From Nitrospirota bacterium (GTDB lineage: Bacteria; Nitrospirota; Thermodesulfovibrionia; UBA6902), in the NCBI GenBank assembly GCA_016214845.1, contig JACRMS010000028.1, forward strand, positions 16,070-80,069: a DNA stretch of 64,000 nt, given 5' to 3'. A program made the position numbers and the translations under genes. The notes beneath the pieces were generated by a model. It was not told the DNA's origin, did no database searches, and saw nothing but the letters and a program-made list of their open reading frames with translations. This document shows positions 10,381 to 27,223 of this stretch, piece by piece; within the stretch, counting starts at the first letter, position 1, and each line of letters begins with the position of its first letter.

Positions 10381-10382
10381 TT

Positions 10383-10901: not shown

Positions 10902-10912
10902 TTAATGGACCT

Positions 10913-10990
10913 TCGTAATTCGTGATGCGTAATGAGTAATGTGTAATGGATATTTTGTTCAAACACTTTACGCATTACGCTTAACGCTTC
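10913..10990. repeat. Imperfect palindrome built from CGTAATG-type heptamers in the nuoA-nuoB gap
   Basis: gtaattcgtgatgcgtaatgagtaatgtgtaatgga ... ttacgcattacgcttaacgcttcacgg. Confidence 0.55.
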
Positions 10991-10998
10991 ACGGTTTT

Positions 10999-11370
10999 TC
11001 ATTCCCACTCGAACGCGCCCTTCTTCCAGACATATATATAGCCGACTAAGAGGATGAACATGAACAGCATCATTTCTACAAAGCCGAATATTCCGAGTTT
11101 ATCATAAGCGACCGCCCACGGATACAGGAAAACCGCTTCAACGTCAAACACGACAAAGAGCATTGCTACGATGTAAAACTTAACGGAAAATTTGTATCGC
11201 GGTTCGCCGACCGGGGGGTTTCCTGATTCATAAGGGAAGAGCTTTTGCGTATATGGCCTCCTGGGCCTGACAAGGATTCCGATTACCAGGGAGCCGAGCC
11301 CGATGAATAACGCAATCAGCACAATGATTACAACCGGGAAATAATCTGATGGAATAAATGTTCCTGGCAT
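10999..11370 (-). CDS. nuoA: NADH-quinone oxidoreductase subunit A
   Basis: 123-aa membrane protein with three TM helices, the first gene of the operon (nuoA to nuoL, all minus strand). Confidence 0.85.
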   Translation of the reverse strand: MPGTFIPSDYFPVVIIVLIALFIGLGSLVIGILVRPRRPYTQKLFPYESGNPPVGEPRYKFSVKFYIVAMLFVVFDVEAVFLYPWAVAYDKLGIFGFVEMMLFMFILLVGYIYVWKKGAFEWE

Positions 11371-11624: not shown

Positions 11625-13226
11625 ATGAAGACCATCTTCAATTTCAGAAACCCCGAAAAATCCATTGCGACAAAACTCGTCATTGCAATCGGCCTGCTGA
11701 TCAGCATCGTAAGCTTTATTTTCTGGTATGCCATCCTGAAGAAACAGGAAGTGGACATCAGGTCCATAGCCGTAAAATACGGCGGGTCCTTCGTGAATTT
11801 TACAAAAGAGAGCATTCATCACAGCCTGCTGACATTCCAGCGCGAAGAGACACAGCGGGTGCTTGAAACTCTCGCCACACCTGAGGGCGTCAGGAGAGTA
11901 AGAATCTATAATCATCAAGGCACCATACTCTTCTGCTCGCACAAACAAAGCGTAGGGCAGATCATCGATAAGAACTCTGTCGCTTGCAAGGGCTGCCATG
12001 TTGAACCCGCTAAGTCTCCGGCGCTCCTGCAGACGCCTCAGGTATGGTCTGTTTACAAGGACAAAGGCGCCACTCACCTTAAAATTGTCGGGCCGATACC
12101 GAATGAACCGGGCTGTTCTACTGCAAGTTGTCACGCGCATCCCGAAGGGCAGAAGATCCTCGGATTTGTCGAGGCGGACCTGTCCCTGGCATTTCTTGAC
12201 GAGGCGCTTTTCAAGCAGGGTCTTGCCCTTACAGCCTACGTTGTAATATTCGTTATTGCCGTGTCGGTGTTCCTCGGAATAATTATCTACAAGATCGTTT
12301 CCAAGCCTGTCAGAGACTTAGTCAGCGGCATGGAGGAGGTCGCTGGCGGCAATCTCAATTACTCCGTCTCAATAAAATCCGCGGACGAGATGGGTGTGCT
12401 GGCCCAGACATTTAACTCTATGATCAAAGACCTGAAGGCGGCACGCGACCAGAGTGAGAAATTTACCCAGACACTTGAAGCGGAGGTAGCAAAGAAGACG
12501 GAGGAGATCCAAAAGACCCACACGAACCTCATGCAGACTGAAAAACTCGCCTCTCTCGGCAGGATGGCCGCAGGCGTGGCCCATGAAATCAACAACCCGC
12601 TGACAGGCGTTGTAACTTTTGCATATCTTTTAAAGAAGCGTTTTCCGGCAAACAGCTCTGAGTCGGAAGACCTGAATGTCATCATCGAACAGGCGGAGAG
12701 GTGTTCAAAGATAATAAAAAACCTTCTGACCTTTGCGCGCGCCACGCCCTCTGAAAAAGGGAAGGTCAGCATAAACGACATATTGAGCCGGACCATATTC
12801 ATGGTGCAGAACCAGGAGAAGTTCCATCACATCAAGTTCAATATTAACCTGGAGACTTTCCAGTTTATAATTGTCGGCGACCCGTCGCAATTCCAGCAGA
12901 TATTCCTGAATATGTTCATCAACGCGGCTGACGCCATGAACGGCAGGGGCAATATATTTGTTGCAACCCGCAGGATGACTGAAAACAATAAAGCCTATGT
13001 GGAGATAGAATTTACTGACGAGGGGAGCGGTATAAAAGAAGAGGACATGCCGAAGCTCTTTGAACCGTTCTTTACAACGAAGCCTGTTGGGAAAGGCACG
13101 GGGCTTGGACTTTCCGTCAGCCACGGTATCGTTAAACATTTGGGCGGCTATATCAAGGTGCAAAGCGCCGTTGGCAAAGGTACAAGCTTTTTTGTTAGAC
13201 TACCTTTAGCGGAAGAGGGAAAATGA
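11625..13226 (+). CDS. Sensor histidine kinase (2 TM, periplasmic domain with CxxCH motif, HAMP, HisKA, HATPase_c)
   Basis: TM helices at about aa 18-40 and 205-228. The periplasmic segment contains CKGCH (CxxCH) and CSTASCH. HAMP-like linker, H-box AHEINNPL, and G-boxes GSGIKEED and GKGTGLGLS. Confidence 0.8.
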   Translation: MKTIFNFRNPEKSIATKLVIAIGLLISIVSFIFWYAILKKQEVDIRSIAVKYGGSFVNFTKESIHHSLLTFQREETQRVLETLATPEGVRRVRIYNHQGTILFCSHKQSVGQIIDKNSVACKGCHVEPAKSPALLQTPQVWSVYKDKGATHLKIVGPIPNEPGCSTASCHAHPEGQKILGFVEADLSLAFLDEALFKQGLALTAYVVIFVIAVSVFLGIIIYKIVSKPVRDLVSGMEEVAGGNLNYSVSIKSADEMGVLAQTFNSMIKDLKAARDQSEKFTQTLEAEVAKKTEEIQKTHTNLMQTEKLASLGRMAAGVAHEINNPLTGVVTFAYLLKKRFPANSSESEDLNVIIEQAERCSKIIKNLLTFARATPSEKGKVSINDILSRTIFMVQNQEKFHHIKFNINLETFQFIIVGDPSQFQQIFLNMFINAADAMNGRGNIFVATRRMTENNKAYVEIEFTDEGSGIKEEDMPKLFEPFFTTKPVGKGTGLGLSVSHGIVKHLGGYIKVQSAVGKGTSFFVRLPLAEEGK

Positions 13227-13603
13227 AAAAAATACTGGTAATTGACGACGAAGCGATTGTAAGGACAAGCTGCGAAAGGGCCCTTGGACCGGAAGGCTAT
13301 GAAGTGAAAACAGTGGCCAGCGGCAGGGAGGGAGTTGAGCTCCTCAGGAAAGAGACTTTCGGACTGGTCCTGCTTGACCTGAAGATGCCTGACATGGACG
13401 GCATCGAGGTTTTAAACCTGATCAACACAAACTGGCCGAATACCAAGGTCGTTATGGTCACTGGTTACAGCACCGTCGAGACTGCTGTGCAGGCCCTCAG
13501 ACTTGGCGCGTATAATTTTATTGAAAAACCATTTACCCCCGACACGCTGGTTGCTGCTGTCAAAGAGGTTTTTGAAAATTCAGGGGACATTAAAAAGGAT
13601 TAA
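13223..13603 (+). CDS. Stand-alone receiver-domain response regulator (CheY-like)
   Basis: DDE(11-13), D in LLDLKMPDMDG, T in MVTGY and K in EKPFTP. There is no output domain. Its start overlaps the kinase stop (ATGA), suggesting translational coupling. Confidence 0.8.
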   Translation: MKKILVIDDEAIVRTSCERALGPEGYEVKTVASGREGVELLRKETFGLVLLDLKMPDMDGIEVLNLINTNWPNTKVVMVTGYSTVETAVQALRLGAYNFIEKPFTPDTLVAAVKEVFENSGDIKKD

Positions 13604-13654
13604 TGAGGAAGGCATCTTTTTCATCCTTCCGCCTTCATCCTTAATTGAAAAAAA

Positions 13655-14005
13655 ATGACTCTCAAAGAGATAGCAGAGATCCTTGACGCAACAATTATTT
13701 CAGATTCAGATGATTTAAACGTTCAGATTGTAAACGCATGCAGCGCCGACATGATGAGCGCCGTGCTGTATTACCACACCCCGAATTCCCTGCTCATAAC
13801 CGGCCTTACCCAGCCGCATGTTATCAGGACCGCTGAGATCGCCGGCATAAAGACAATAGTGTTCGTCCTGAACAAAAAGCCTGACGCGTTAACTATCGAG
13901 CTGGCCAGGCAAAAGAAGATCCCGCTCCTCAGCACGCCGTGCTGCATGTACACCGCATCAGGAAGACTGTTCAGCGCGGGCCTGCCGGGCTGTCTGACCA
14001 AATAA
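13655..14005 (+). CDS. Small DRTGG-like domain protein
   Basis: 116-aa protein with the LLITGLTQPHVIRTAEIAGIKTIVFV pattern typical of DRTGG-like domains. These accompany GHKL ATPases in NuoEF-type hydrogenase regulatory loci. Assignment by recall only. Confidence 0.4.
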   Translation: MTLKEIAEILDATIISDSDDLNVQIVNACSADMMSAVLYYHTPNSLLITGLTQPHVIRTAEIAGIKTIVFVLNKKPDALTIELARQKKIPLLSTPCCMYTASGRLFSAGLPGCLTK

Positions 14006-14006
14006 G

Positions 14007-14444
14007 ATGGCTTTAAATATAACTGGAAATATAGACGGTATTTTTCAATTGATCGGCGGGAATTTTTCAACCGCCGGTGAGGCCTCCACCCAGTTGAAAC
14101 ATAAACTCGCTGAGATCGGTGTCGATGAGGAAATTATCAGGCGCGCGACCATAGCGACCTTTGAGGCTGAGATGAACGTGATAATATACGCGGCCGCGGG
14201 CTGGCTTCATTACTACATCACCCCTGAAAGCATAAAAATAAGAATAGAAGACATGGGTCCCGGAATCGAGAACATTGAACTGGCAATGCAGGAAGGCTAT
14301 TCCACGGCGCCTGAATGGGTCAGGGAAATGGGCTGGGGCGCGGGCATGGGGCTGCCGAACATGAAAAAAAATTCCGATACATTCACAGTCGACTCGGTTG
14401 TCGGCGAAGGCACAACAGTGGAGATGGTCATAAATTTTCCTTAA
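14007..14444 (+). CDS. GHKL-type ATPase (anti-sigma-factor/Ser-kinase-like HATPase_c)
   Basis: 145 aa with GPGIENIE and GWGAGMGL G-box-like motifs, the size of an RsbW/SpoIIAB-class protein. It is tightly linked to 13655 (1-nt gap). Confidence 0.55.
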   Translation: MALNITGNIDGIFQLIGGNFSTAGEASTQLKHKLAEIGVDEEIIRRATIATFEAEMNVIIYAAAGWLHYYITPESIKIRIEDMGPGIENIELAMQEGYSTAPEWVREMGWGAGMGLPNMKKNSDTFTVDSVVGEGTTVEMVINFP

Positions 14445-14447
14445 CCT

Positions 14448-14610
14448 TTTAGATAACAGATAACCACAGAGGACACGGAGATAAAAATAAAACAATCCAC
14501 AGATCTCTCAGATTGCACAGAGTTAGAAAAAACTCCTATTGAAAATCTGTGCAATCTGCGAAATCTGTGGACAATAAAATTCCTCTGTGACCTCTGTGGT
14601 TAATAGTTAA
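14448..14610. repeat. Cluster of CACAGAG/ATCTGTG heptamer and 9-mer repeats forming a long hairpin in front of ORF 14624
   Basis: tccacagatctctcagattgcacagag (14490-14516) is the reverse complement of tctgtgcaatctgcgaaatctgtgga (14547-14572). The same triple AATCTGYGN motif recurs at 22373-22400. Flanking ccacagaggacacggag resembles 61722-61740. Confidence 0.55.
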
Positions 14611-14623
14611 AAGGAGAACCGAT

Positions 14624-14956
14624 ATGAAAGTCAAAGACCTTGTTGATCAATTGTCTCTGGATGTCAGATCATTTAATGACGGCCTTGGAAATGACATAAC
14701 CGGGGCATATGTCAGCGACCTGCTTTCCGATGTGATGGGAAACAGCAAAAAGGGGAATGTCTGGATAACCCTTCAGACCCATCTGAATATTGTTGCTGTT
14801 GCAAGCATGAAAGACCTCTCCGCTATTATAATCGTCGGAGGCAGGCAGGCGCAGGAAGAGACCATTAAAAAAGCTGAACAGGAAAAGGTCACAATACTGA
14901 CGACCGCGTTGCCTTCATTCGAGGCGTCAGGCAAAATTTATCAGATTCTTAAATAA
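14624..14956 (+). CDS. Small DRTGG-like or CBS-associated domain protein (hypothetical)
   Basis: 110 aa with a strong SD (aaaggag) 8 nt upstream and an IIIVGGRQAQEE motif. Assignment is tentative. Confidence 0.35.
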   Translation: MKVKDLVDQLSLDVRSFNDGLGNDITGAYVSDLLSDVMGNSKKGNVWITLQTHLNIVAVASMKDLSAIIIVGGRQAQEETIKKAEQEKVTILTTALPSFEASGKIYQILK

Positions 14957-15105
14957 CATTTGCCACGAATCACACGAATAATCACGAAATATCAGGCCGC
15001 AGATTTTCGCTGATATACGCGGATAAGCTTATTTTCTTAAATCATGATAATTGCTTCTGGTCTTATTTTTTATTTTCATTCGTGTTTATTCGTGTGATTC
15101 GTGGC
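14953..15105. terminator. Long imperfect inverted repeat (CACGAAT heptamers) between convergent genes, a probable bidirectional terminator
   Basis: gccacgaatcacacgaataatcacgaa (14954-14980) against ttcgtgtttattcgtgtgattcgtggc (15069-15095, reverse complement about 90% identical). About 85 nt of AT-rich sequence lies between the arms. Confidence 0.5.
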
Positions 15106-15118
15106 TAAAAAGTCTTTT

Positions 15119-16516
15119 TTACAGTGGCAAATTAATTAAAAACCGGCTGCCCTTTCCAAATGCGCTTTCCACTTTAATGTTCCCGCCGTGCGCTTCTACA
15201 ATTATCTTTGATATGCTCAAGCCAAGGCCGGTGCCGTCTTCGCTTCTTGAAGTGTCCGCCCTGTAAAACCGTTCAAATATCTTTTCCAGATCGTCCTGCC
15301 CGATGCCGGGGCCTGTGTCTAAGACTGAGATCACTGCGGTATTGTTATTTCTTGCCGTGGTAATTTCCACTGCTCCGTTTTCCTTATTGTAGTTCACGGC
15401 GTTTTCAATTATGTTCAGAAATACCTCGGTGAGCCTGTCTTTATTTCCCGTTATATTAATGTCATCTTTAAGGACCGTATTTATTGTTACGGATTTCTTT
15501 TCTGTCAGCGGCACTGCCATCTGCGCCGCTTCCCGGATGCATTCATTTAAAGATACGATCTTAAAACCATCCGGAGACAGCATCCCCGAATCAAGGCGCG
15601 CCAGGGAAAGCAGGTCTTTTATAAGCCTGCCCATGTTCTCAGAGACGGTCCTGATCGTACTCAACGCTTCAACGTATTCATCCTTTGTCCTGTCCTTTTG
15701 AAGCAGGACGTCGCAGTGGGTCTTTATCACAGTAACAGGTGTCTTAAGCTCATGGGACGCATCAGCGACAAGACGCCGCTCCGTCTCAAACGCCTTCTGG
15801 AGCCGGTCCAGCATCGCATTGAAAGAATCCGCGAGCACGGACAGCTCATTGGTCACTGCCTCAACGTCTATCCTCTTGCTGAGGGTTTTATGGGTGATGT
15901 TTTCGATATCGGAAGAAAATATTTTTAAAGGATCCAAAGAATGATTTGCCGCCCACAGCCCTGCAAAACTGATTATAAGGATACCCACGGAAGCCGCGAT
16001 CAGCAAAAAACGTTTAAACATATTGATCATCTCAAGGCTGTCAGCGATGCTTTCGGCGGCAAATACGCTGACGGGAATGCCGAGGAAGTCAAGGTCATGC
16101 TGTTTTATCCGCACCGGTTCGTTGTCTGGCCCGACGGATGTATAGACCCTTTCACTGAGCGCTTCATCGTAATATTCAAGTTTGGCTGATGTTAAATTAA
16201 TATCCTCATCGGCAAGTGAAGGTGATGCCGCAAGCAGCCTTCCGTTCATCAGCACCTGGTAGTAATGTCCCGAGCGCGGGATGGAATACGCCCCTGCGAT
16301 GATCTCGGAGAGTTCAAGCTCTATCCTGCCGTCTTCTTCGTGAAGTAAACCCGTAATGACCTGAAGCTGCGAATGGAGCGCCCGGTCAACAGAGGCAAAG
16401 ATGATCCGCTCTACCTCATGATAGAGGAACAGACTGACGGTAATAAGCAGAATGGACGTCAAACTGAGGAACCAGAAGAATAACCTGCCCTTGATGGATT
16501 TGGGGAATATCTTCAC
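15119..16516 (-). CDS. Sensor histidine kinase (2 TM, periplasmic sensor, HAMP, HisKA, HATPase_c)
   Basis: H-box SHELKTP and G-boxes DTGPGIGQDD and GTGLGLSISK. Its stop abuts the start of the upstream regulator 16517-17188 (no intergenic gap). Confidence 0.8.
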   Translation of the reverse strand: MKIFPKSIKGRLFFWFLSLTSILLITVSLFLYHEVERIIFASVDRALHSQLQVITGLLHEEDGRIELELSEIIAGAYSIPRSGHYYQVLMNGRLLAASPSLADEDINLTSAKLEYYDEALSERVYTSVGPDNEPVRIKQHDLDFLGIPVSVFAAESIADSLEMINMFKRFLLIAASVGILIISFAGLWAANHSLDPLKIFSSDIENITHKTLSKRIDVEAVTNELSVLADSFNAMLDRLQKAFETERRLVADASHELKTPVTVIKTHCDVLLQKDRTKDEYVEALSTIRTVSENMGRLIKDLLSLARLDSGMLSPDGFKIVSLNECIREAAQMAVPLTEKKSVTINTVLKDDINITGNKDRLTEVFLNIIENAVNYNKENGAVEITTARNNNTAVISVLDTGPGIGQDDLEKIFERFYRADTSRSEDGTGLGLSISKIIVEAHGGNIKVESAFGKGSRFLINLPL

Positions 16517-17188
16517 TTACTCCTTTTCCAGGACATAGCCTGCGCCTCTTACCGTTCGAATAAGCTGTTTGCCGCGTCCCTTGTCAATCTTGTTTCTCAG
16601 ATAGTTGATATAGACGTCTATCACGTTGCTGTCAAGATCAAACTCCGAATCATAAATATGCTCGGTAAGTTCGGTCCTGCTTATTACCTTGCCGGTGTTG
16701 AGCGCGAGATATTCAAGCAGTTTATATTCGGTTGAAGAAAGTTTGATCTCCCTGTTGCCTCTCTTTACGGTCATGGAGTTCATGTCTATTTCGAGGTCGC
16801 CTATACCGATGGTTGACGAGGGTTTGCTCCTGCTTCTTCTTATAACGGCCTTCAGTCTTGCAAGCAGCTCTGAAAAATCAAACGGCTTTGCAATGTAGTC
16901 GTCCGCCCCGGTATTCAACCCCTTTATCCTGTCATCAACTTCCCCTCTCGCCGTTATCATAAGGACCGGCACGGCTACTTGTTTTGCCCTGATCTTTTTC
17001 AGGACTGTAAGCCCGTCCATTTTGGGAAGCATGATATCAAGAAGGATAGCGTCGTAAGAATATGTCTCTGCCATGAAAAGCCCTTCCTCGCCGTCAAAAC
17101 ATAATTCCACAACAAAGCCGTTTTCTTCAAGGCCCTTCTTCAGTATCCCCGCTAATTTCTTCTCATCTTCTACTATAAGTAAACGCAT
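16517..17188 (-). CDS. OmpR-family response regulator (REC plus winged-helix trans_reg_C)
   Basis: MRLLIVEDE...LLDIMLP receiver and a C-terminal winged helix with a GAGYVL-type end motif. Confidence 0.85.
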   Translation of the reverse strand: MRLLIVEDEKKLAGILKKGLEENGFVVELCFDGEEGLFMAETYSYDAILLDIMLPKMDGLTVLKKIRAKQVAVPVLMITARGEVDDRIKGLNTGADDYIAKPFDFSELLARLKAVIRRSRSKPSSTIGIGDLEIDMNSMTVKRGNREIKLSSTEYKLLEYLALNTGKVISRTELTEHIYDSEFDLDSNVIDVYINYLRNKIDKGRGKQLIRTVRGAGYVLEKE

Positions 17189-17253
17189 AGGATTTGGAAC
17201 AAAGTCTGCACAGGCAGTCAGGCATTTTGCCTGGCTGCCTGTGCAGGATGTTT

Positions 17254-18447
17254 TTAGTCCTCAAGCTCTATCTTGATAGCCGCATTGGTGTCGCTGTTGA
17301 TCTTGACCTCCACGATCCATCCTGTCTGAAGGTCGGTAAAACAGGCTTCGCCCTGACCCATCATGCCCTGTGTGTATTTGCACACTGTGTTATCAGTGAC
17401 AGTGATCGGGGCCGGGGCCGTGTCTAATGTGAAATCGGCTGCGCCTTTAGTAGCAACCTTTCCTTTGAGTTCCCTGTTCTGGTGCGTTTCACCTTCATCG
17501 CTGCCGGAATCAGAACCTTCACAATCCGATGATGATGATTTAGCTTCTATCTTGGTTGCAGTGATTGTAGTTGTTGAAGACAGATCATCGGATGTCTTTA
17601 TTTCGAGACAAGTATTGAGGGTGAGGGCATTCAGGCAGTTCGCCGCGCCGGAATAGTTTATATCATTCACTTCGCAGATCGTGCTGCCCGTGAGGTTAAC
17701 CGTAAAATCCGTGCTCATGTGTTTGACGGTTATACTGTCAGCCCCGACATTAGTCAATGTCCCGTGCAGATCAAATTCCGAAGCCTCTATCTCGCTTTCA
17801 GATGTAATCGGCTGCATCTTTACTTCTGTTATACACCACGAAGATGTATCAGCGGGACTTGTACACGAATACTTTTTTACCTCAAACTCTTTAAGGACAA
17901 AATCAACCACGAGCTTATCTGAGCTCAATGGCTGGACCCTGCCGTTAAACCTTATGAAGCATTTATTGCTGCCATCTGCCGGGCACTGCACTGTATCAGG
18001 CTTGTTTGGCTTTTCATCCATGTCGGAAAAGAAAGCGTTATGAGCAACGCCGCTGTTGTCCGTTATGCTTGCCATGTTCCCGATGATGATCTCAAGCCTG
18101 TTAAATGTCCCCGCAGGGAAGGTGGCAGTTGTTATTAACTGGAGAACACCGTTAAGCTTTGCAAGGTCAACTGAAAGCCCCGTTGCATTTATGTAGAGGT
18201 TCTCCTTGGTTGTACAGTCATTGTCAGAACACAGATTGATCTCATAAACAGTTACCGTTATCGCGGGGAACTGGTCTGCCGGGTCATCCGTTAAAAACAC
18301 CCCGACGCTTTTCGCCCCTGCTGAACTGTTTGAGCCTCCGCCTGAACCTGAGCCGCCTCCGCTGCCTCCGCCGCTACAGTACGCAAGTATCAATGCAACA
18401 CTTATTGCCCCTAACAGCAAAAGCATTTTTTTTCCTTTGGTAATCAT
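17254..18447 (-). CDS. Lipoprotein with Gly/Ser linker (DUF4382-like, hypothetical)
   Basis: Signal peptide and lipobox (LILAYC) followed by (GGGS)n low-complexity linker. Beta-rich and Cys-containing. Domain recall is uncertain. Confidence 0.45.
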   Translation of the reverse strand: MITKGKKMLLLLGAISVALILAYCSGGGSGGGSGSGGGSNSSAGAKSVGVFLTDDPADQFPAITVTVYEINLCSDNDCTTKENLYINATGLSVDLAKLNGVLQLITTATFPAGTFNRLEIIIGNMASITDNSGVAHNAFFSDMDEKPNKPDTVQCPADGSNKCFIRFNGRVQPLSSDKLVVDFVLKEFEVKKYSCTSPADTSSWCITEVKMQPITSESEIEASEFDLHGTLTNVGADSITVKHMSTDFTVNLTGSTICEVNDINYSGAANCLNALTLNTCLEIKTSDDLSSTTTITATKIEAKSSSSDCEGSDSGSDEGETHQNRELKGKVATKGAADFTLDTAPAPITVTDNTVCKYTQGMMGQGEACFTDLQTGWIVEVKINSDTNAAIKIELED

Positions 18448-18528
18448 GTTATTAACCTCCTGAATTTTTTCTGCTCAGCATTGAGCATTTTTTATGTGAT
18501 GCATTTCCCGGCGAACAGAGATCACGCC

Positions 18529-18849
18529 TCACTTCCTGGCCTTTTTGATCTCGATCTTATCCGCGGAAAACCCTTTCCCTTCATGTCCGCCCTTCACCTC
18601 AATATATGCGCCTGTCTCAGCCTTTCCGTGGTCCTCCTCAATCAGGGTATCGGATGTGACCAGTATCTCTCTCCCGTTCACTATCCAGGTCCCTATTAAC
18701 CCCTTTGGGAGTTCCTCTATCGTACCGTAGAGCTTGCTTTCATATCTCTTATGATGTTTATGCTCTTCGTCATCATTGCTGCCGAACACAACCCCCGCAG
18801 TCAAAGCAACTATCAATCCGATAGACAGAACAGCTGATAAGACCTTCAA
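18529..18849 (-). CDS. Small secreted protein (DUF5666-like, hypothetical)
   Basis: 106 aa with a signal peptide and a His/Lys-rich N-region. It is adjacent to the lipoprotein and likely co-regulated by the two-component system. Confidence 0.35.
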   Translation of the reverse strand: MKVLSAVLSIGLIVALTAGVVFGSNDDEEHKHHKRYESKLYGTIEELPKGLIGTWIVNGREILVTSDTLIEEDHGKAETGAYIEVKGGHEGKGFSADKIEIKKARK

Positions 18850-19064
18850 AGCATCACCTCCTGTTTCTTGTTCTTATTCTGAACTGCATTCCTTGTCATA
18901 CCTTTTATAAAAATGATTATATCAAACCAAGATTAAAGGAAGATTAAAATCTTACGTCCCGCAGGGAAACAACTTTCCTAACGCATTGTATTTTAGTTTA
19001 AAACGCAGCTATAGAAAACCATAACGGGGTTTACAGAAAAGTCAAAAAAGAAATATGATACAAA

Positions 19065-19808
19065 ATGCTGAAACCGTTTAAGGCCGACCTCCACATCCAC
19101 ACATGCCTCTCCCCGTGCGCCGACCTTGAAATGAGCCCATCCGCTGTAGTAAGAACGGCGCTTGAAAGAGGCATAGACATCATCGCTATCACCGACCATA
19201 ATTCAGCGGAAAATATAATCGCCGCCCGGAAGGCCGCTGAAAATTCAGGACTGACAGTGCTTGCCGGGATGGAGGTAACATCCTCGGAGGAAGCGCACAT
19301 CCTTGCGCTCTTTGATGATGCTGAAGGAATTATGAAATTACAGGATATCGTGTACGACAATCTGCTGCCGGGAGAGAACGACGAAAAACTCTTCGGCGAG
19401 CAGATAGTTGTAAATGAAAAAGACGAGGTCATGGATTTTAATAAACGCCTGCTCATCGGAGCGACATCATTGCCCGCAAAGACAATCGTTGACACGATAC
19501 ACACTTTAGGCGGCATTGCCATCGCTTCGCACATTGACAGGGACGCCTTCAGCATCGTATCACAGTTAGGCTTCATTCCTGAGGATTTAAATTTTGACGC
19601 GCTTGAGATGTCGCCAAGGACCGACAGGGGGAAAGCTGTGCTTTTATATAATGACTACGCCTCATTTGCTTGGACAACTTCCTCGGATGCACACTGGCTG
19701 AAAGACATCGGAGAAAGAACAACCACCTTCCTCATAAACCGGCCGACACTGGAGGAGATGAGACTGGCCATGAAAAACATTGACGGAAGAAAGGTGGAGT
19801 GGGGGTAA
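19065..19808 (+). CDS. PHP-domain phosphoesterase (HfsC-like putative protein phosphatase)
   Basis: N-terminus LHIHTCLSPCAD and a later ITDHNS metal-binding motif typical of PHP domains. It overlaps the downstream GHKL ATPase by 10 nt. Confidence 0.7.
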   Translation: MLKPFKADLHIHTCLSPCADLEMSPSAVVRTALERGIDIIAITDHNSAENIIAARKAAENSGLTVLAGMEVTSSEEAHILALFDDAEGIMKLQDIVYDNLLPGENDEKLFGEQIVVNEKDEVMDFNKRLLIGATSLPAKTIVDTIHTLGGIAIASHIDRDAFSIVSQLGFIPEDLNFDALEMSPRTDRGKAVLLYNDYASFAWTTSSDAHWLKDIGERTTTFLINRPTLEEMRLAMKNIDGRKVEWG

Positions 19809-20359
19809 TCATGCAAGACCTTTCATTACACATCCTCGACATCGTTGAGAACTCGATAAACGCAAGCGCCACAGAGATCGGGATAAAGATCGTTGAAGAC
19901 ACCAAAGTAAATATTCTCTCCGTTGAAATAAGCGACAACGGCAGGGGCATGGATGAGGAGATGCTGAAAAAGGTCCATGACCCTTTCTTTACCACAAAGT
20001 GCAAGCGGACAGGCCTGGGCATCCCGCTGCTTGCGCAGTCGGCAAAGGAATGTAATGGTGATCTGACTATAAAAACGGGGTCGGGCATAGGCACAACGAT
20101 CAGCGCGCGTTTTCAGTTTGACCATATCGACAGGAAGCCTCTTGGAGATATCTGCAAGACAATGATCGTCCTGATCGCCTCGAATCCTGATGTTGATTTC
20201 ATTTATGAGCACAGGAGAAATGATGAATCTTACGTCCTGAATACCTCTGAAATCAAGAAGGAATTGGATGATGTTCCGATCAATTTACCCGATGTGATAA
20301 AAATTATTAAAGATGATATAAGCGCATGGTTAATTAGTACAAACATTATGATACAATAG
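19799..20359 (+). CDS. GHKL-type ATPase (HfsD-like Ser/Thr-kinase-like HATPase_c)
   Basis: HILDIVENSINA N-box, DNGRGMDEE G1 and GLGIPL/GSGIG G2 motifs. There is no HisKA or H-box. Confidence 0.6.
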   Translation: MGVIMQDLSLHILDIVENSINASATEIGIKIVEDTKVNILSVEISDNGRGMDEEMLKKVHDPFFTTKCKRTGLGIPLLAQSAKECNGDLTIKTGSGIGTTISARFQFDHIDRKPLGDICKTMIVLIASNPDVDFIYEHRRNDESYVLNTSEIKKELDDVPINLPDVIKIIKDDISAWLISTNIMIQ

Positions 20360-20444: not shown

Positions 20445-21209
20445 ATGGAAAAAGGCAGAATATTAGTACTCGATGACGATCCTGTTGTGACCCTGAGCTG
20501 CAAGAGAATACTCGGCGCAGAAGGCTACAGCATTTCAACTGTCGAAAAAGGAGAAGACGCCCTCAATAAACTCGCCAAGGAAGATTTCGACCTCCTCATC
20601 TCCGACGTAAGACTGCCTGATATCAGCGGCATGACCGTGCTCAAAGAGGCACGGGTCATCAAGCCGAAGACGGACGTTGTAATAATCACCGGCTATCCCA
20701 CGCTCGAAGACGCAAGGGAATCCACAAGGCTCGGCGCTCATGAGTATATTGAAAAGCCCTTCACGCCTGATTTCATGATCAATGTCGCAAAGAAGATCTT
20801 CGACACAAGGGGCTGGATCCTCAGGCAGGCGTTCATCGACGAGTTCAGGGATTCCGTCACCCCGCTGAGGGACCAGGAAAATCCGGTCATCTTTTATAAG
20901 GAAGGGACCTGGGCAAGGCCCGTCAAGGACGGCATGTGGGAGATCGGCTGCGATCTCAGATACTGGATGTTGGCGGGAAATCTCATGTACGTTGATTTAA
21001 TGAAGGACATAGATAAACTGGAAGCGGGGAGGCCCTTCGCAAGAATTTACTCAAGCGGCGGACAGGGGAGCGAACTGCTTTCTCCGATGAACGGGGAAAT
21101 AACTGAAGTCAATACAAAGGCGAACGATGTAATGGTCGCTCTATTGAAAGACCATTTGTCCGAAGGCTGGCTCCTGTGGCTTGCAAAAGTATTGCCGATA
21201 GGAAGTTAG
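20445..21209 (+). CDS. Receiver domain fused to a GcvH-like (lipoyl-type hybrid-barrel) domain that lacks the lipoyl-Lys
   Basis: REC residues DDD(10-12), D in LISDVRLPD and K in EKPFTPD. The C-terminus aligns to glycine-cleavage H protein (GTWARP..EIGCDLRYWMLAGNLMYVDL...SPMNGEITEVN...EGWLLW). The ESVKA Lys position reads YSSGGQG. Confidence 0.65.
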   Translation: MEKGRILVLDDDPVVTLSCKRILGAEGYSISTVEKGEDALNKLAKEDFDLLISDVRLPDISGMTVLKEARVIKPKTDVVIITGYPTLEDARESTRLGAHEYIEKPFTPDFMINVAKKIFDTRGWILRQAFIDEFRDSVTPLRDQENPVIFYKEGTWARPVKDGMWEIGCDLRYWMLAGNLMYVDLMKDIDKLEAGRPFARIYSSGGQGSELLSPMNGEITEVNTKANDVMVALLKDHLSEGWLLWLAKVLPIGS

Positions 21210-21328: not shown

Positions 21329-22201
21329 TTGATGGCAGACAATCTGAAAATCCTTGTCGTTGACGATGAGCCTATTGTTATAAAAAGCTGCGTGGCCGTG
21401 CTCAAGGCCGAAGGATATAACATCGAAGGTACGCTGAGCGGAAAAGACGCGATACTCAAGATGGAGCAAAACCCCTACGACCTCGTTTTCACTGACCTGA
21501 AGATGCCTGAAGTTGACGGCATAACCCTTATCAGATGGATCAAGCAAAAAAGACCTGACACGGGGATAGTGATAATCACAGGCTATCCTTCGCAGGACAC
21601 GATCAAAGACGCGCTTGAATTAGGCATTATTGATTACGTTCCGAAACCTTTTACCCCGGCAGTGCTTCTTGACGTGACCCAAAGAGCGGTTGAATGGGTA
21701 AAAGGAAAAGTCCCTGTAACAGAGGAAGTCAAAGAAGAATTCCCGCCTTCCATGATCCAGGAAATAGACAGGGTGATAAAACAGTATAAAAATAAACCCG
21801 GCAGTTCGATACCCGTGCTGCAGCGCTGCCAGCAGATAGTGGGTTATCTCCCTCCTGTTGTGCAGAAACGCATCGCAAGGGGTTTGAATATAACCCCTGC
21901 TGAGATCCACAGCATTGTTACCTTCTATTCCTTTTTCACAATGAAGCCCAGAGGCGACCACAACATCAGGATATGCCTCGGCACTGCGTGTTACGTTAAA
22001 AGGGTTGAAGAAGTCCTGAACAAGATAAAAGAAGATTTGAAACTGGAAGTCGGCGAAGTGACTTCGGACAAAAAATTCTCTCTGGAAACAGTCCGCTGCC
22101 TCGGCGCGTGCGGCCTTGCGCCTGTCATGGTCATTGATGATGAGACCTACGGCGCAATGAGCCCGAAGAAAGTGCCTGAGATCATCGAACAGTATAAATG
22201 A
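21329..22201 (+). CDS. Receiver domain fused to a NuoE/HoxE-like thioredoxin-fold [2Fe-2S] subunit
   Basis: N-terminal REC with DDE(12-14), D in FTDLKMPEVDG and K in VPKPFTPA. The C-terminus has the NuoE ligand pattern CLGTACYVKR...CLGACGLAPVMVIDDETYG. Confidence 0.75.
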   Translation: MMADNLKILVVDDEPIVIKSCVAVLKAEGYNIEGTLSGKDAILKMEQNPYDLVFTDLKMPEVDGITLIRWIKQKRPDTGIVIITGYPSQDTIKDALELGIIDYVPKPFTPAVLLDVTQRAVEWVKGKVPVTEEVKEEFPPSMIQEIDRVIKQYKNKPGSSIPVLQRCQQIVGYLPPVVQKRIARGLNITPAEIHSIVTFYSFFTMKPRGDHNIRICLGTACYVKRVEEVLNKIKEDLKLEVGEVTSDKKFSLETVRCLGACGLAPVMVIDDETYGAMSPKKVPEIIEQYK

Positions 22202-22415: not shown

Positions 22416-22799
22416 ATGGCGAGATTAACCATTGAGGACCTAAAGAAGATAAAGGAAAAACAGCACGCCACCTTCACTCTCAGGGAAGGCGGATACAGGG
22501 CGAAGGTCACAGTCCACATGGGCACATGCGGGATCGCCGCCGGAGCGAGAGAGATCATGGCGGCCCTGCTTGATGAAATAGCCCAGTCAAAGGCTGAAGA
22601 CATAATTACAACAACCTCAGGCTGCGCTGGGCTTTGCGCGCGCGAGCCGATGATAACCGTTGAGGTGCTGAACAAACCGCCGGTGAAATACGGCGACCTG
22701 ACAGCAGAAAAGCTGAGAGAGATATTTAAAGAGCACGTTCTGGGCGGCAACCCTGTAGAAAAATACGCGCTGGTTGCAGGAAGTGAAACAACGTATTAA
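22416..22799 (+). CDS. Thioredoxin-like [2Fe-2S] ferredoxin subunit (HndB-like)
   Basis: 127 aa with CGIAAG...SGCAGLCAREP Cys pattern. The SD aaaggag lies inside the conserved ATCTGYG leader motif. Confidence 0.6.
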   Translation: MARLTIEDLKKIKEKQHATFTLREGGYRAKVTVHMGTCGIAAGAREIMAALLDEIAQSKAEDIITTTSGCAGLCAREPMITVEVLNKPPVKYGDLTAEKLREIFKEHVLGGNPVEKYALVAGSETTY

Positions 22800-22889: not shown

Positions 22890-24761
22890 ATGGAAAAGTA
22901 TCGTGCAAACTTACTAATGTGTGCGGGAACAGGCTGCGTAGCAAGCGGGACCCCCAAGGTAAAAGCTGCCTTGCAGGAAGAGCTGCAGAAGAGGGGGCTT
23001 GCCGATGAGATAAAGATCGTACTCACCGGGTGTAACGGGTTCTGCGCTGAGGGGCCTGTCATGCTCGTTTATCCTGATGAGATTTTTTACCAGAAGCTCA
23101 CCGTTGAAGATATTCCAAAGCTTGTTGAAGAACATTTTCTTAAAGGGCGTCCTTATGAAAAATTGATGTTCAGGGAGCCGGAGAAAAAGTCGGCGATCCC
23201 CCTGATGAAGGACATACCGTTCTTCAAACACCAGGTGCTGAGGGTCCTGAGAAACAAAGGTTTGATAGACCCTGAAAGCCTTGACGAATACATTGCAAGG
23301 GACGGCTACATGGCTGCCGCAAAGGCCCTCCATGAAATGACGTCAGCGGACATAATAAAGGTCATGAAAGACTCAGGGATCAGGGGGCGCGGCGGCGCGG
23401 GATTTCCAACGGGAATGAAATGGGATTTCGCATCAAAGTCGGTTGCGGACCAGAAATTCATGCTATGTAACGGAGACGAAGGAGACCCCGGCGCGTTCAT
23501 GGACAGGTCGGTCATGGAGGCAGACCCGCATTCGGTAATAGAGGGAATGATGATAGGCGCAAAGGCCATTGGCGCGAGCAAGGGCGTTATTTATGTAAGA
23601 GCTGAATATCCGCTGGCGGTAAAGCGCCTGCAATTGGCAATAGACAAATGCCGCGAGGCGGGACTGTTAGGAGAAAATATTCTCGGCAGCGGCTTTAACT
23701 TCGACCTTGAAATATATCTTGGCGCCGGTGCGTTCGTATGCGGTGAGGAGACCGCGCTCATGCGCTCAATTGAAGGCAAGCGCGGGATGCCGAGACCAAG
23801 ACCGCCCTTCCCTGCCCACAAAGGTTTATGGGACAAGCCTTCGGTCCTGAACAATGTCGAAACCCTCGCCCAGGTAGCGCCGATCATTCTGAACGGGGCT
23901 GATTGGTATAAAACCCTGGGCACTGAAAAAAGCACCGGCACAAAAGTATTCGCCCTCACCGGCGACATCAGGAACGTGGGCCTTGTCGAGGTCCCGATGG
24001 GGATCCCGCTGAGGACCATAATTTATGACATCGGCGGCGGGATGAAGAACAAGAAAAAGAAATTCAAGTCAGTGCAGATGGGAGGGCCTTCAGGAGGCTG
24101 CATCCCTGAAAGCCATATTGATATCCCGGTCACATATGAAGACGTTGTCAAGACCGGCGCCATCATGGGTTCAGGCGGCATGGTCGTCATGGACGAAGAC
24201 ACCTGCATGGTGAGCACTGCAAAATTTTTCCTTGAATTCACCGCTGACGAATCCTGCGGCAAATGTACGCCGTGCAGAGTCGGCACGAGGGTAATGCTTG
24301 ATATGCTCACCGACATCACGGAGGGCAGGGGAAAAGACGGTGACATTGAAACGCTTCAGGACCTGAGCAGGGACATTATTTTAACGTCTCTTTGCGGTCT
24401 CGGGCAGACAGCCCCAAACCCTGTCCTTTCGACGATCAGATATTTTAAAAATGAATATGAATCACACATCATTGACAACTGGTGCAAGACGGGCATATGC
24501 AGGAACCTCTGTTCCTTCCATATATTTGAAGACCTCTGCAAAGGATGCGGCGCATGTTTAAGAGGATGCCCACAGCAGGCGATCGTCGGCGAGAAGAAAC
24601 AGCCCCACCGGATCATCCAGGAGCTCTGCATACAATGCAGGAACTGTTACGACACATGTAAGTTCGGATCAATAAAGATAGGCCCGAAAGGGTGCAAAGA
24701 CATAAAAGCCATGCGCGAGCTTTTGGAGAAGGTTGAGAAAGTTGAGGAGGTCAAGGGATGA
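22890..24761 (+). CDS. NuoF-like NAD(H)-binding flavoprotein subunit with an extra N-terminal 2Fe-2S domain and C-terminal 2x[4Fe-4S] ferredoxin domain (HndC/HydB/FdhB-type)
   Basis: N-terminal CAGTGC...CNGFCAEGP, central GRGGAGFPTGMKW and ESCGKCTPCR, C-terminal CKGCGACLRGCP and CIQCRNCYDTC. 623 aa against the 420-aa true NuoF at 6707-7969. Confidence 0.85.
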   Translation: MEKYRANLLMCAGTGCVASGTPKVKAALQEELQKRGLADEIKIVLTGCNGFCAEGPVMLVYPDEIFYQKLTVEDIPKLVEEHFLKGRPYEKLMFREPEKKSAIPLMKDIPFFKHQVLRVLRNKGLIDPESLDEYIARDGYMAAAKALHEMTSADIIKVMKDSGIRGRGGAGFPTGMKWDFASKSVADQKFMLCNGDEGDPGAFMDRSVMEADPHSVIEGMMIGAKAIGASKGVIYVRAEYPLAVKRLQLAIDKCREAGLLGENILGSGFNFDLEIYLGAGAFVCGEETALMRSIEGKRGMPRPRPPFPAHKGLWDKPSVLNNVETLAQVAPIILNGADWYKTLGTEKSTGTKVFALTGDIRNVGLVEVPMGIPLRTIIYDIGGGMKNKKKKFKSVQMGGPSGGCIPESHIDIPVTYEDVVKTGAIMGSGGMVVMDEDTCMVSTAKFFLEFTADESCGKCTPCRVGTRVMLDMLTDITEGRGKDGDIETLQDLSRDIILTSLCGLGQTAPNPVLSTIRYFKNEYESHIIDNWCKTGICRNLCSFHIFEDLCKGCGACLRGCPQQAIVGEKKQPHRIIQELCIQCRNCYDTCKFGSIKIGPKGCKDIKAMRELLEKVEKVEEVKG

Positions 24762-27223
24762 TTAATCTGACCATTAACGGTAAAAAAATTACTGCTGAAG
24801 ACGGAGCGACAATACTGCAGGCCGCGCTGAAAAACAATATTCATATACCCAACCTCTGCTACGACAAAAGGCTCAGGCCCTACGGCGGATGCAGGCTGTG
24901 CATAGTTGAGGTCGAGGGACAGGCGAGGCTCTTTGCGGCCTGTTCGTCCCCTGCTGAAAACGGCATGGTCGTCACCACGGACACGCCCAAACTCAGGAAG
25001 CTGCGCCAGACGGTCATCGAGCTGCTTTTAGTCCACCATCCGCTCGATTGTCCTGAATGCGACAAGGCGGGTGAATGCCAGCTGCAGGACCTTGCTTATG
25101 AATGCGGCAAGCCCGAAGCGCGTTTTTTAAGACACAGGAAAGAGGCCACGGCAGACGTCAGGGGGCCGTTGATCGAGTTGACCTCAAGAAGATGCATACT
25201 CTGCGGAAAGTGCGTGAGGATATGCGCTGAACACCAGGGAAGAGGCGCGCTCGGTTTGATCGGAAGAGGTTTTCCCACAGTCGTTCAGCCCGCCTTCGGT
25301 GAGATACTTGAATGCGATTACTGCGGGCAGTGCCTCGACATCTGTCCCACGGGGGCGATACTGAGCAAGCCTTATAAATTCACTTCGCGCTCGTGGTTCC
25401 TTGAAGAGAAGGACACCATCTGCCCGTTCTGCGGCGTCGGCTGCACCCTCACCATCGGCATCAGGGAAGGAAAGATACTGAGGTCCAGGGGAGAGGAAGG
25501 CAAAGGCGTCAATGACGGAAACCTCTGCGGAAGGGGCAGGTTCGGCATTGATTATATCTACAACGAAAAGCGCCTGAAAAAACCGTTAATTAAAAAGGGC
25601 GACGAACTGGTCCCTGTCTCATGGGAAGAGGCCTTGTCCTATATTTCAAACAAACTGAACGCTGTGATAAAAAATCACGGAGCGGCTTCAATAGGAGCCA
25701 TCGGCTCTCCGAGATGCACCAACGAAGATAATTATGTCCTGCAAAAATTCATGAGGAAGGTAATCGGAACAAACAATATTGATTCCTCCGCCGCATTCGG
25801 CTACAACAAAGTGCAGAAGGCATGGGAAATGTCCTTCGGCGGGAAAAACCATCCCATAGACCTGAGATATCCTCTGGGCAAAGAGGCCATCCTTATAATC
25901 GAATCAAACATCAGCGTCACACACCCGGTGTACGGGCTTAACATCCTCCAGGCAAAAAGAGAAGGCGCTAAACTCATTGTCGCTGACTCAAGAGAGACAA
26001 AGCTGACAAAACACAGCACGCAGTGGCTCAGTATCAAGGACGGCACAGGCGTCGCCTTTTTAAACGGATTAATGAAAGTCATCATCGACAGGGAACTTTA
26101 TGATAAAGACGCCGCGTCAAAGATATCAGGTTTCTCGTCTCTAAAATCAGCCTTGGCAAATTACACCCTTAAAAACGTCTCAGATATTACAGGCATCCCG
26201 GAAGATGAAATCATCTCTGCCGCAGAAACATTTGCAAAGGCAAAGAGCAGGATGGTCTCACTTACTGTCAGCGCGTCTGAAAACACAAAAGGCATGGACA
26301 CAGTGCTTGCCGCCGCGAACCTCGTCAATCTTTTAGGTGACAGCCCTGAGGCCCTGCAAATTCCCGCGAACTACTCAAACAGCTACGGTCTCTACCAGAT
26401 GGGCGTAAGGCCCTTCCAGCAGCCGCTGAACATGGGCGTCTTCGAGATGCTTTACAGTGAAGAGAGCTCGCTCAAGTCGCTGTATATCATGGGAGAAGAC
26501 CCGGCAGTCACATTCCCCGACAGCGCAAAGATAATAAAGAGATTGAAGTCCCTTGATTTCCTCGTGGTGCAGGATATCTTCCTCACTGAAACCGCAAAGC
26601 TTGCAAACGTGGTGCTGCCCGCGTCAAGCTGGGCCGAAAAAGACGGGACCTTCATGAATGCAGAAGGCGTCCTGCAAAAAGTTTACAAACTGACAGACCC
26701 CGCAGGCGAATCATATCCGGACTGGATGATACTGAAAAATCTCGCCCTGACCATGGGCAAAGACGCGGGAGTCAAAAACCTGCAGGGTATCCAGGAGGAA
26801 ATAAAATCTCTTATCTCAGCCCACGACCCGGCAGGGGAGAAAAAGACGTTCAACCCTGTAGAGTATAAACCTGGAGAGGACCCGAATCCTGATTATCCGC
26901 TGAAGCTTGTGATAAGGGATGTCCTTCAGCACTCAGGCAGCATGTCCACAAGCTCCAAATCACTCGACCTCGTTATCTCCGAGGCATTGCTTGAAATAAA
27001 TGAGGAAGACGCAAAGAGGCACGGCATACTCGATAACAGTCATGTGAAGCTGGTCTCAAAACGCGGGTCCGTGTACCTGAAGGCCCAATATTCAGATGAA
27101 ATTCCAGAAGGCACGGTCTTTGTGCCCACGCACTTCCCTTACGCAAAGATAAACGCTCTCACTCAGGCCTCCTCAAACGGCGAGCCGCCGATCATTGCGG
27201 TGAATGTCGAGGCTACGAAGTAG
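24758..27223 (+). CDS. NuoG-like 2Fe-2S/4Fe-4S subunit with a non-catalytic molybdopterin-oxidoreductase-like domain (paralog of nuoG)
   Basis: N-terminus CYDKRLRPYGGCRLCIVEV, HPLDCPECDKAGECQLQD and CxxCxxC. The motif SPRCTNEDNYVLQKFMRKVIGTNNIDSSAAFGY has no Cys/SeCys-His pair at the formate dehydrogenase active-site position. Confidence 0.8.
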   Translation: MINLTINGKKITAEDGATILQAALKNNIHIPNLCYDKRLRPYGGCRLCIVEVEGQARLFAACSSPAENGMVVTTDTPKLRKLRQTVIELLLVHHPLDCPECDKAGECQLQDLAYECGKPEARFLRHRKEATADVRGPLIELTSRRCILCGKCVRICAEHQGRGALGLIGRGFPTVVQPAFGEILECDYCGQCLDICPTGAILSKPYKFTSRSWFLEEKDTICPFCGVGCTLTIGIREGKILRSRGEEGKGVNDGNLCGRGRFGIDYIYNEKRLKKPLIKKGDELVPVSWEEALSYISNKLNAVIKNHGAASIGAIGSPRCTNEDNYVLQKFMRKVIGTNNIDSSAAFGYNKVQKAWEMSFGGKNHPIDLRYPLGKEAILIIESNISVTHPVYGLNILQAKREGAKLIVADSRETKLTKHSTQWLSIKDGTGVAFLNGLMKVIIDRELYDKDAASKISGFSSLKSALANYTLKNVSDITGIPEDEIISAAETFAKAKSRMVSLTVSASENTKGMDTVLAAANLVNLLGDSPEALQIPANYSNSYGLYQMGVRPFQQPLNMGVFEMLYSEESSLKSLYIMGEDPAVTFPDSAKIIKRLKSLDFLVVQDIFLTETAKLANVVLPASSWAEKDGTFMNAEGVLQKVYKLTDPAGESYPDWMILKNLALTMGKDAGVKNLQGIQEEIKSLISAHDPAGEKKTFNPVEYKPGEDPNPDYPLKLVIRDVLQHSGSMSTSSKSLDLVISEALLEINEEDAKRHGILDNSHVKLVSKRGSVYLKAQYSDEIPEGTVFVPTHFPYAKINALTQASSNGEPPIIAVNVEATK

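Follow-up and report, generated by a model that had tools for sequence, protein, structure and literature searches.

Introduction

Why should genes that elsewhere accompany a sensory hydrogenase lie in a stretch of DNA that encodes no hydrogenase at all? The question is raised by 64,000 nt of the genome of a Nitrospirota bacterium (GenBank assembly GCA_016214845.1, contig JACRMS010000028.1, positions 16,070 to 80,069 of the forward strand; this whole stretch is called the window below). Between positions 13655 and 20359 of the window lie genes for two small DRTGG proteins, two GHKL-type ATPases, and a PHP-type phosphoesterase, and downstream of them lies a NuoEFG-like redox module related to the Bfu/HydABC enzymes. 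An earlier note on this DNA had described the five genes as a hydrogenase-type regulatory set that had no hydrogenase. The electron-bifurcating Bfu/HydABC enzymes set the balance among NADH, ferredoxin, H2, and formate in anaerobes, and their regulation is essentially unknown; likewise, the interaction partners and signalling route of the group D putative sensory [FeFe]-hydrogenases (HydS) were still unidentified in 2026 (PMC13104023).

Here we show that the flagged genes are the two halves of one conserved cassette, not two separate sets, and that the cassette in the window is a hydrogenase-less, receiver-wired version of a widespread accessory cassette that has so far been noticed only in passing. 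We propose that this cassette is a signalling layer that tunes Bfu complexes, with an exchangeable input and, in Nitrospirota, with wiring through receiver domains—a reading to which we give a probability of roughly 55%.

One cassette in two halves

The first half of the cassette comprises, on the plus strand, DRTGG protein a (116 aa, 13655..14005), a small SpoIIAB-like GHKL protein (145 aa, 14007..14444), and DRTGG protein b (110 aa, 14624..14956); the second half comprises, on the same strand, a PHP metal-dependent phosphoesterase (247 aa, 19065..19808) and a two-domain GHKL ATPase (182 aa, 19811..20359). In relatives the five genes are contiguous and occur in this same order (loci L005, L008, L089, and L090 of the survey described below), with the PHP gene directly after DRTGG-b in L005, L006, L008, L089 (complete genome CP070632.1), and L090. 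The cassette is part of a cluster of twelve plus-strand genes that reads: kinase, receiver (REC), the five cassette genes, REC-GcvH-like fusion, REC-NuoE fusion, small [2Fe-2S] protein, BfuB, and NuoG-like BfuA. The same twelve genes stand in one cluster in L008, L089, and L090; the contigs of L005 and L006 are truncated. Among the first seven genes of L008, neighbours overlap or come close to doing so.

What separates the two halves in the window is a block on the minus strand (15119..18849), recognised by Pfam profiles and by comparison with relatives, that encodes a histidine kinase (15119-16516), an OmpR-type regulator (16517-17188), a DUF4382 protein (17254-18447), and a DUF5666 protein (18529-18849). 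This two-component block is present in contigs of the same population (L001-L003) and absent from L005, L006, L008, L089, and L090; it is thus, like the subtilase and cupin genes described below, an insertion specific to the population of the window, L001-L003 included. The earlier note had treated 13655-20359 as a single gene set, which is right for the cassette genes but not for the unrelated block between them.

The small GHKL and DRTGG-b genes are themselves separated by a spacer of 179 nt (14445..14623) that folds as a near-perfect hairpin, with a minimum free energy of -71.3 kcal/mol and a z-score of -11.4; the equivalent spacer in L008 is 24 nt long. Because its terminal inverted repeats of about 20 nt (AACCACAGAGGWCAC) recur in an intergenic region at 61724-61861, around a different core of about 100 nt, the spacer is an element resembling repetitive extragenic palindromes or miniature inverted-repeat transposable elements. 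Other phyla have group D HydS in the very slot where the hairpin sits. A tblastn search of this palindromic repeat and of the rest of the window revealed no hidden remnant of a hydrogenase.

The statement that no hydrogenase is present holds for the full 64 kb: tblastn detected neither an H-domain nor a [NiFe] large subunit, and tblastn together with Pfam searches of all large open reading frames (ORFs) found no Fe_hyd_lg_C-like sequence, and no counterpart of the Hfs hydrogenases, in the window. A weak sigma-70-like promoter match lies just upstream of the PHP gene (19030-19059); promoter and terminator scans returned matches barely above shuffle expectation and are not relied upon here.

Distribution of the cassette

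Species-representative genomes, when scanned, yielded 80 loci (Nitrospirota, Syntrophales, Desulfobacterales, Acidobacteriota, Ignavibacteria, Cloacimonadota, Aminicenantes, Clostridia, Planctomycetota, Spirochaetota, Bipolaricaulota, and others). Our survey set, the window not counted, consists of 82 related loci and spans more than 12 phyla. The loci were annotated with profiles built from the window proteins, combined with motif checks. A GHKL ATPase gene follows the PHP gene in 80 of the 82 loci, the small GHKL protein is found in 71, and two DRTGG genes are found in 61. The association is sometimes carried further by gene fusion: PHP-HATPase_c fusions occur in 4 of 150 representatives of the PHP family (a compact family of 505 clusters at 50% identity, E<1e-30), and in one locus, L029, a DRTGG domain is fused to the small GHKL protein.

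The usual neighbours of the cassette are genes for Bfu-type enzymes, with NuoE in 58 loci and a Bfu-type NuoF in 56; in L015, L029, L052, L056, and L075 the cassette is interleaved between bfuC (NuoE) and bfuB (NuoF). The suggestion that such genes recall accessory genes interleaved in NuoEF-type operons is therefore borne out by the survey—the set is the accessory set of HydABC/Bfu operons. It is not specific to hydrogenases, as had been supposed, because at least five kinds of third module accompany the Bfu cores that carry it, and sometimes the cassette stands alone. The third module is a group A HydA in 2 loci, a [NiFe] large subunit in 11, and a NuoF-GltD fusion in 25; others are HdrA-like fusions, the NuoG-like protein of about 820 aa found in Nitrospirota, and, in some loci, a selenocysteine formate dehydrogenase whose first ORF ends in ...GTNNVDHCARL at TGA.

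A second variable element is what appears to be the input. An ORF of about 440 aa lies between the small GHKL and DRTGG-b genes in 27 of the 82 loci; its Pfam domains (two [4Fe-4S] domains, Fe_hyd_lg_C, and a C-terminal PF04060 FeS domain) and its lack of a PAS domain are those of group D (M2e) enzymes such as TamHydS, the putative sensory [FeFe]-hydrogenases. Cassettes without HydS are the majority (55 of 82), and neither the window nor any Nitrospirota relative with REC-NuoE has group D HydS. In 14 loci the small GHKL protein has a long form of about 310 aa with an N-terminal pair of CBS domains, which Pfam confirmed in all five of the proteins tested. The HydS and CBS forms share a single locus of the 82 (Fisher one-sided p=0.02), and a kinase with motifs like those that bind c-type haem, described below, is found in 7 loci with no overlap with the other inputs; it lies upstream in the Nitrospirota loci that lack both HydS and the CBS pair. 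Judged from gene context, such a near-exclusive pattern is what would be expected of one shared signalling core whose sensors can be exchanged.

The closest known system is the set of accessory genes of group D (M2e) TamHydS: the families are the same, in the same order, and they adjoin NuoE/HydC, the small 2Fe-2S protein, and a HydB-type NuoF. The window differs from TamHydS-type operons in having no HydS, with the 179-nt hairpin in its slot; in having a haem-motif kinase and a REC gene upstream; in its fusions of REC with NuoE and with a GcvH-like domain; and in a BfuA that is a NuoG paralogue, not a hydrogenase.

The cassette proteins

Pfam profile searches supported every domain named in the earlier note—the DRTGG, GHKL, and PHP assignments are sound. 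DRTGG-a matches PF07085 (5e-8), and its sole solved relative is AF_1212 (2ioj; E 0.014). DRTGG-b matches PF07085 (2.8e-5) and Hpr_kinase_N (6e-4); its PF07085 score of 24.3 bits is slightly below the gathering score of 25.2, and its orthologues in L005, L006, and L008 carry PF07085. Alignments of the two paralogues (65 sequences for DRTGG-a and 77 for DRTGG-b, the window copy included in each) reveal a common D-L-[LM]-S-D-V motif.

The small GHKL protein matches HATPase_c_2 (6e-8), and its top NCBIfam match is the anti-sigma F factor SpoIIAB (TIGR01925; 1e-14, 54.5 bits against a cut-off of 135). SpoIIAB structures are its only solved relatives by sequence (PDB 1til, 9e-4), and the N, G1, and G2 ATP-binding boxes are kept throughout an alignment of 60 sequences that includes the window copy. 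The similarity to SpoIIAB/RsbW systems extends to the surroundings: in both, a small stand-alone GHKL protein with its boxes kept is flanked by two small alpha/beta proteins and has a phosphoesterase nearby. The window, however, has DRTGG in place of STAS, PHP in place of PP2C, and no sigma factor.

The PHP protein matches PF02811 (4e-12), and its metal ligands are all kept in sets of 43 and 77 homologues. The invariant residues are H10, H12, D44, H45, E70, H156, D208, H210, and C18, and a conserved C14-x3-C18 pair lies beside the HxH motif. Its NCBIfam matches include 3',5'-bisphosphate nucleotidase and RNase RNM. The PHP domain behind the label of phosphatase is real, and the nearest solved relatives are nucleases and nucleotidases, not protein phosphatases. 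An anti-phage defence system built of a PHP protein and an ATPase (Ppl, PDC-M49) was also considered and rejected; the matches in PADLOC, at 15-22 bits, were confined to the N-terminal PHP domain.

The GHKL ATPase (HATPase_c, 7.6e-17) starts at the ATG at 19811 according to gene callers and 120 homologues, not at 19799, which would give 186 aa. An AlphaFold2 model (mean predicted local distance difference test 85.8) predicts a Bergerat fold followed by a small alpha/beta C-terminal domain. The protein had been labelled a kinase: its HATPase_c domain is confirmed, but the kinase label is unproven, because the protein has no dimerisation and histidine phosphotransfer (DHp) or other phospho-accepting His domain and its full-length likeness is to MutL and Topo VI-B. 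There is no HisKA match by Pfam, and histidine-kinase matches in Foldseek span only the ATP-binding (CA) domain of about 100 residues. A permuted H-box was considered in the conserved segment F...HIDRxPLGD, which in the AlphaFold2 model is a loop that leads into the alpha/beta domain and not into a helical hairpin; the candidate was dropped, as was the idea of a true histidine kinase.

The neighbouring Bfu-type enzyme

The NuoEFG-like module is indeed the redox partner that neighbours the cassette, and by homology it is probably a bifurcating-type enzyme. Its NuoE subunit, BfuC, is part of the REC-NuoE/HydC fusion (21332..22201, plus strand; 2Fe-2S_thioredx 1.8e-50, Response_reg 7e-29), the NuoE part of which has NiFe-HydC (7t2r_C) as its best solved match. 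Downstream on the plus strand lies a small thioredoxin-like [2Fe-2S] protein of 127 aa (22416..22799; PF01257 2.9e-5), which we take to be HydD-like; its gene is kept between NuoE and NuoF in most loci, the same place as in hyd operons. BfuB (22890..24761, plus strand) is a HydB-type NuoF of 623 aa in which Pfam recognises the FMN/NADH core between a 2Fe-2S domain at the N terminus and a 2x[4Fe-4S] domain at the C terminus. It matches NiFe-HydB (7t2r_B, 823 bits) and HydB (7q4v_B, 798 bits) over its full length, and it shares 44% identity with the canonical NuoF of the same window. BfuB and BfuC are thus near-full-length matches to solved bifurcating enzymes. Measured against the Bfu family as described in PMC9304861, the window has a BfuB with both extra Fe-S domains that matches HydB full-length, a NuoE-like BfuC, and a BfuA with the N-terminal 2Fe-2S/4Fe-4S domains.

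The A subunit (821 aa, 24758..27223, plus strand) has a molybdopterin fold by Pfam, without the Cys/Sec-His pair, and scores under the cut-off of both the Fdh-alpha and the NuoG NCBIfam models. Its best solved matches are FdsA-type subunits of FdsABG (9wxb_B, 6tg9_A), with the same domain order. Unlike FdsA, it has Gly-Tyr at the catalytic Cys386-His387, as does NuoG; a formate dehydrogenase was therefore rejected on the alignment to 6tg9_A. The substitution is also found in six other Nitrospirota orthologues (L007, L008, L010, L022, L027, and L048). BfuA is 34% identical to the canonical NuoG of the window, which also lacks the Cys-His pair. Without this pair, we read the module as a Bfu-type core whose A subunit would be an electron-transfer connector lacking a catalytic site. 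Neither the window nor L008, L089, or L090 was found to have a third-substrate catalytic module in cis; having no catalytic third site of its own, the Bfu module would have to use a partner elsewhere.

The cluster is divergent from nuoA, the first gene of a nuo operon (1732-11370, minus strand) with canonical NuoE (154 aa), NuoF (420 aa), and NuoG (854 aa) by Pfam. A complete nuoA-N operon lies alongside in most relatives, and a Bfu set and a canonical nuo operon stand side by side and divergent in six or more Nitrospirota loci besides the window (L008, L009, L020, L025, L089, and L090). Schut et al. 2022 (PMC9304861) listed Nitrospirae among the clades predicted to have a 'Nuo-Bfu', with BfuABC in place of NuoEFG. 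As the adjacent nuo operon keeps its own NuoE, NuoF, and NuoG, the Bfu set here is instead an extra, divergent paralogue and not a replacement.

The upstream kinase and the receiver proteins

The first gene of the cluster (11625..13226, plus strand) encodes a sensor histidine kinase with HAMP, HisKA, and HATPase_c domains by Pfam. Hydropathy places two transmembrane segments around an outside domain of about 155 aa, which contains the motifs CKGCH (residue 121) and CSTASCH (residue 164), of the CxxCH and Cx4CH types. Both Cys-His motifs are kept in all eight Nitrospirota orthologues upstream of the cassette, the kinase of the window included, which suggests that the outside domain is a c-type haem sensor. 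The stop codon of the kinase gene overlaps the start of the gene for the stand-alone REC protein (13223..13603, plus strand; Response_reg 1.9e-33).

Two further REC domains are found in fusions, and the REC proteins mentioned in the earlier note do sit in the same cluster as the cassette genes. The REC-GcvH-like fusion (20445..21209, plus strand; Response_reg 1e-25, GCV_H 1.5e-9) is kept in Nitrospirota relatives, and its GcvH-like domain has Gly at the lipoyl-Lys position when aligned to GcvH of E. coli. The REC-NuoE fusion is common to all 120 best database matches, which are Nitrospirota proteins of 74-100% identity. The acidic pair, the phospho-acceptor Asp, the Thr, and the Lys (DD/D/T/K) can be read intact in all three REC domains. 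The parts of a two-component system are therefore in place—a kinase with HisKA and HATPase_c, and REC domains with the Asp pocket—and phosphotransfer between them is predicted. The literature searched held no description of a REC-NuoE fusion, and Schut et al. 2022 (PMC9304861) make no mention of REC fusion to BfuC.

A proposed signalling layer for Bfu complexes

A regulatory role for the cassette is suggested by domain homology and gene context. In the mechanism that we favour, the cassette would set the activity of the Bfu enzyme according to redox or energy state, probably post-translationally. The input module would be exchangeable: HydS for H2, the CBS pair on the small GHKL protein for adenylates, and here the putatively redox-sensing kinase. 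The two DRTGG proteins would be targets of the small GHKL protein or would hold it, and the pair of PHP protein and GHKL ATPase may reverse or gate this step. In Nitrospirota the signal would reach the enzyme directly, by way of a phosphorylated REC domain in the NuoE fusion. The Bfu module may hand its electrons to a partner whose genes lie elsewhere, perhaps the neighbouring complex I.

Several observations weigh against this mechanism. The function assigned to the cassette proteins is a prediction from homology and context. Pfam found no STAS, PP2C, or sigma factor among the cluster proteins scanned, and the small GHKL protein, with 54 bits, falls well short of the 135 bits set as the SpoIIAB equivalog cut-off. 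The solved structures nearest to the PHP protein (EndoQ, an RNase AM-type 5'-3' exoribonuclease, and TM0559) do not include the protein tyrosine phosphatases of the PHP type, and the full-length Foldseek matches of the GHKL ATPase are N-terminal domains of MutL/PMS2 and Topo VI-B rather than a kinase. The serine of the DRTGG D-L-x-S-D motif is a weak candidate at best for a phospho-site, since the motif is partly present in the non-signalling AF_1212. A minority of cassettes have housekeeping genes as neighbours and no Bfu gene inside 10 kb, and 35 loci have no recognisable input module. Finally, the depositors' molecule names for the matched solved Bfu complexes list only subunits A, B, and C. 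The solved NiFe-Hyd complex has subunits S and L as well. As the cassette proteins are not among the subunits of solved complexes, a stable association with the enzyme is unlikely.

In a more far-reaching form of the proposal, the cassette would serve across phyla as a modular switch of Bfu enzymes, into which different sensors can be plugged (HydS, CBS, or a periplasmic haem-c kinase), hard-wired in Nitrospirota via REC-BfuC/NuoE, with phosphorylation deciding whether the ferredoxin-coupled Bfu-type N-module or the canonical NuoEFG feeds the neighbouring complex I. We regard this form as doubtful.

Alternative explanations

The cassette proteins could instead be assembly, cofactor-insertion, or transient structural factors of Bfu complexes, for example an ATP-dependent chaperone with a flavin- or nucleotide-processing phosphoesterase. 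The position of the cassette between bfuC and bfuB in several loci, implying co-expression, fits this, as do the resemblance of the 182-aa protein to MutL/Hsp90-class ATPases and the fact that PHP enzymes commonly hydrolyse nucleotide phosphoesters. We nonetheless consider it unlikely: the cassette is fused to or paired with sensor modules (CBS pairs, sensory hydrogenase, REC, histidine kinases), it also occurs without Bfu genes, and functional HydABC and NiFe-HydABCSL were purified and solved without cassette proteins, judging by their molecule names.

A second possibility is that the PHP/GHKL pair acts on a nucleic acid or a nucleotide messenger, as an ATP-gated RNase or phosphodiesterase with DRTGG or CBS domains as receptors, and that no protein phosphorylation is involved. 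The nearest PHP relatives point this way (EndoQ, the 5'-3' exoribonuclease, and TrpH-like proteins, along with the NCBIfam nucleotidase and RNase matches noted above), and so do the likeness of the GHKL ATPase to DNA-handling GHL ATPases and the occurrence of DRTGG mostly beside CBS domains that bind adenylates or diadenosine tetraphosphate (Ap4A). The PHP matches, however, are all weak and at the level of the domain, with no defence or nuclease family matched above threshold; the Zn-finger/DNA-binding part of EndoQ is absent from the 247-aa protein, whose match covers residues 1-246; and the SpoIIAB-like protein points to signalling at the protein level. We find this explanation improbable, to about the same degree as an assembly function.

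The explanation offered by the earlier note was that an HfsC/HfsD-like pair and a classical Ser/Thr partner-switching circuit, left over from a hydrogenase regulon, act on the REC proteins or on NuoEF. There is substance in it: the domains are real, the small GHKL protein is SpoIIAB-like, the REC proteins and NuoEF lie in one cluster, and the cassette occurs with a sensory hydrogenase in 27 loci. The HfsABCD/HydS systems (group C; Thermoanaerobacterium and Ruminococcus) share with the window the idea of signalling genes beside genes of hydrogen metabolism. In those systems, however, the HfsB/HydS protein contains a PAS domain, HfsC is homologous to Ser phosphatases, and HfsD belongs to the hydrogenases (PMC5707799, PMC11837493)—more exactly a ferredoxin-linked [FeFe]-hydrogenase (PMC11837493), not a GHKL kinase. 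The window has a counterpart of none of the three. The phosphoesterase here is a PHP protein and the type of hydrogenase that does partner the cassette is the PAS-less group D (M2e), so the analogy fails on the published descriptions. The partner-switching part is weakened by the lack of a PAS-hydrogenase, PP2C, STAS, or sigma factor and by a 182-aa GHKL protein that has no phospho-acceptor domain, and the idea of a regulon remnant by the fact that most loci pair the cassette with non-hydrogenase Bfu enzymes. Taken as a whole, we hold this explanation to be quite unlikely. Nothing relevant turned up in the literature searched for hydrogenase operons with DRTGG proteins, PHP proteins, or histidine kinases.

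The least likely rival is a decaying relic, in which HydS was lost, the cassette was disrupted by the block and the hairpin, and the genes became non-functional: a 3.7-kb opposite-strand insertion and a 179-nt palindrome do split the cluster, and DRTGG-a of the window departs at three conserved positions (L33M, D36A, Q55H), but this is very improbable because the ORFs are all intact with their catalytic residues kept, conservation across many Nitrospirota populations is strong (identities of 67-94% for PHP and 74-100% for REC-NuoE), the HydS-less form is the majority one (55/82), and, as weak evidence, the sigma-70-like promoter match stands upstream of PHP.

Surroundings of the cluster

Downstream of the cluster, a cupin gene and a gene for a fervidolysin-like subtilase (27288-29807, minus strand) lie between the NuoG-like gene and rtcB; they form a second local insertion, with no counterpart at this position in L008 and with only an archease gene in L090. 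The clusters of L005 and L007 are divergent from the sulfate-reduction genes sat-aprBA-qmo, not from nuo. L007 also carries NfnAB-like genes (DHODB_Fe-S_bind and GltD-like; 12368-14642) inserted between REC-GcvH-like and REC-NuoE, along with a second HydB-type NuoF after the NuoG-like gene; the cluster thus recruits extra modules in some lineages.

Further along the window, a large dCache-HAMP-PAS-GAF-HD(HD_5) signalling protein that is unrelated to the cassette is encoded at 32809-35601 (plus strand), and an ORF of 2903 aa at 44359-53070 (minus strand) lies in a patch with a G+C content of 0.54-0.57, compared with about 0.48 elsewhere.

Implications

The genes found around HydS make up a cassette that stands by itself and is kept even where there is no hydrogenase. 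This cassette follows the Bfu core whatever the third substrate, while the sensor module is swapped. It also supplies a set of candidate signalling partners for the group D hydrogenases—two DRTGG proteins, a SpoIIAB-like GHKL protein, a PHP phosphoesterase, and a GHL ATPase—and, if the modular switch described above is true, these would be the long-sought partners of the group D 'sensory' hydrogenases. In the Nitrospirota form, a receiver is fused to a respiratory-type flavoprotein subunit, which would amount to direct phospho-control of an energy-conserving redox enzyme.

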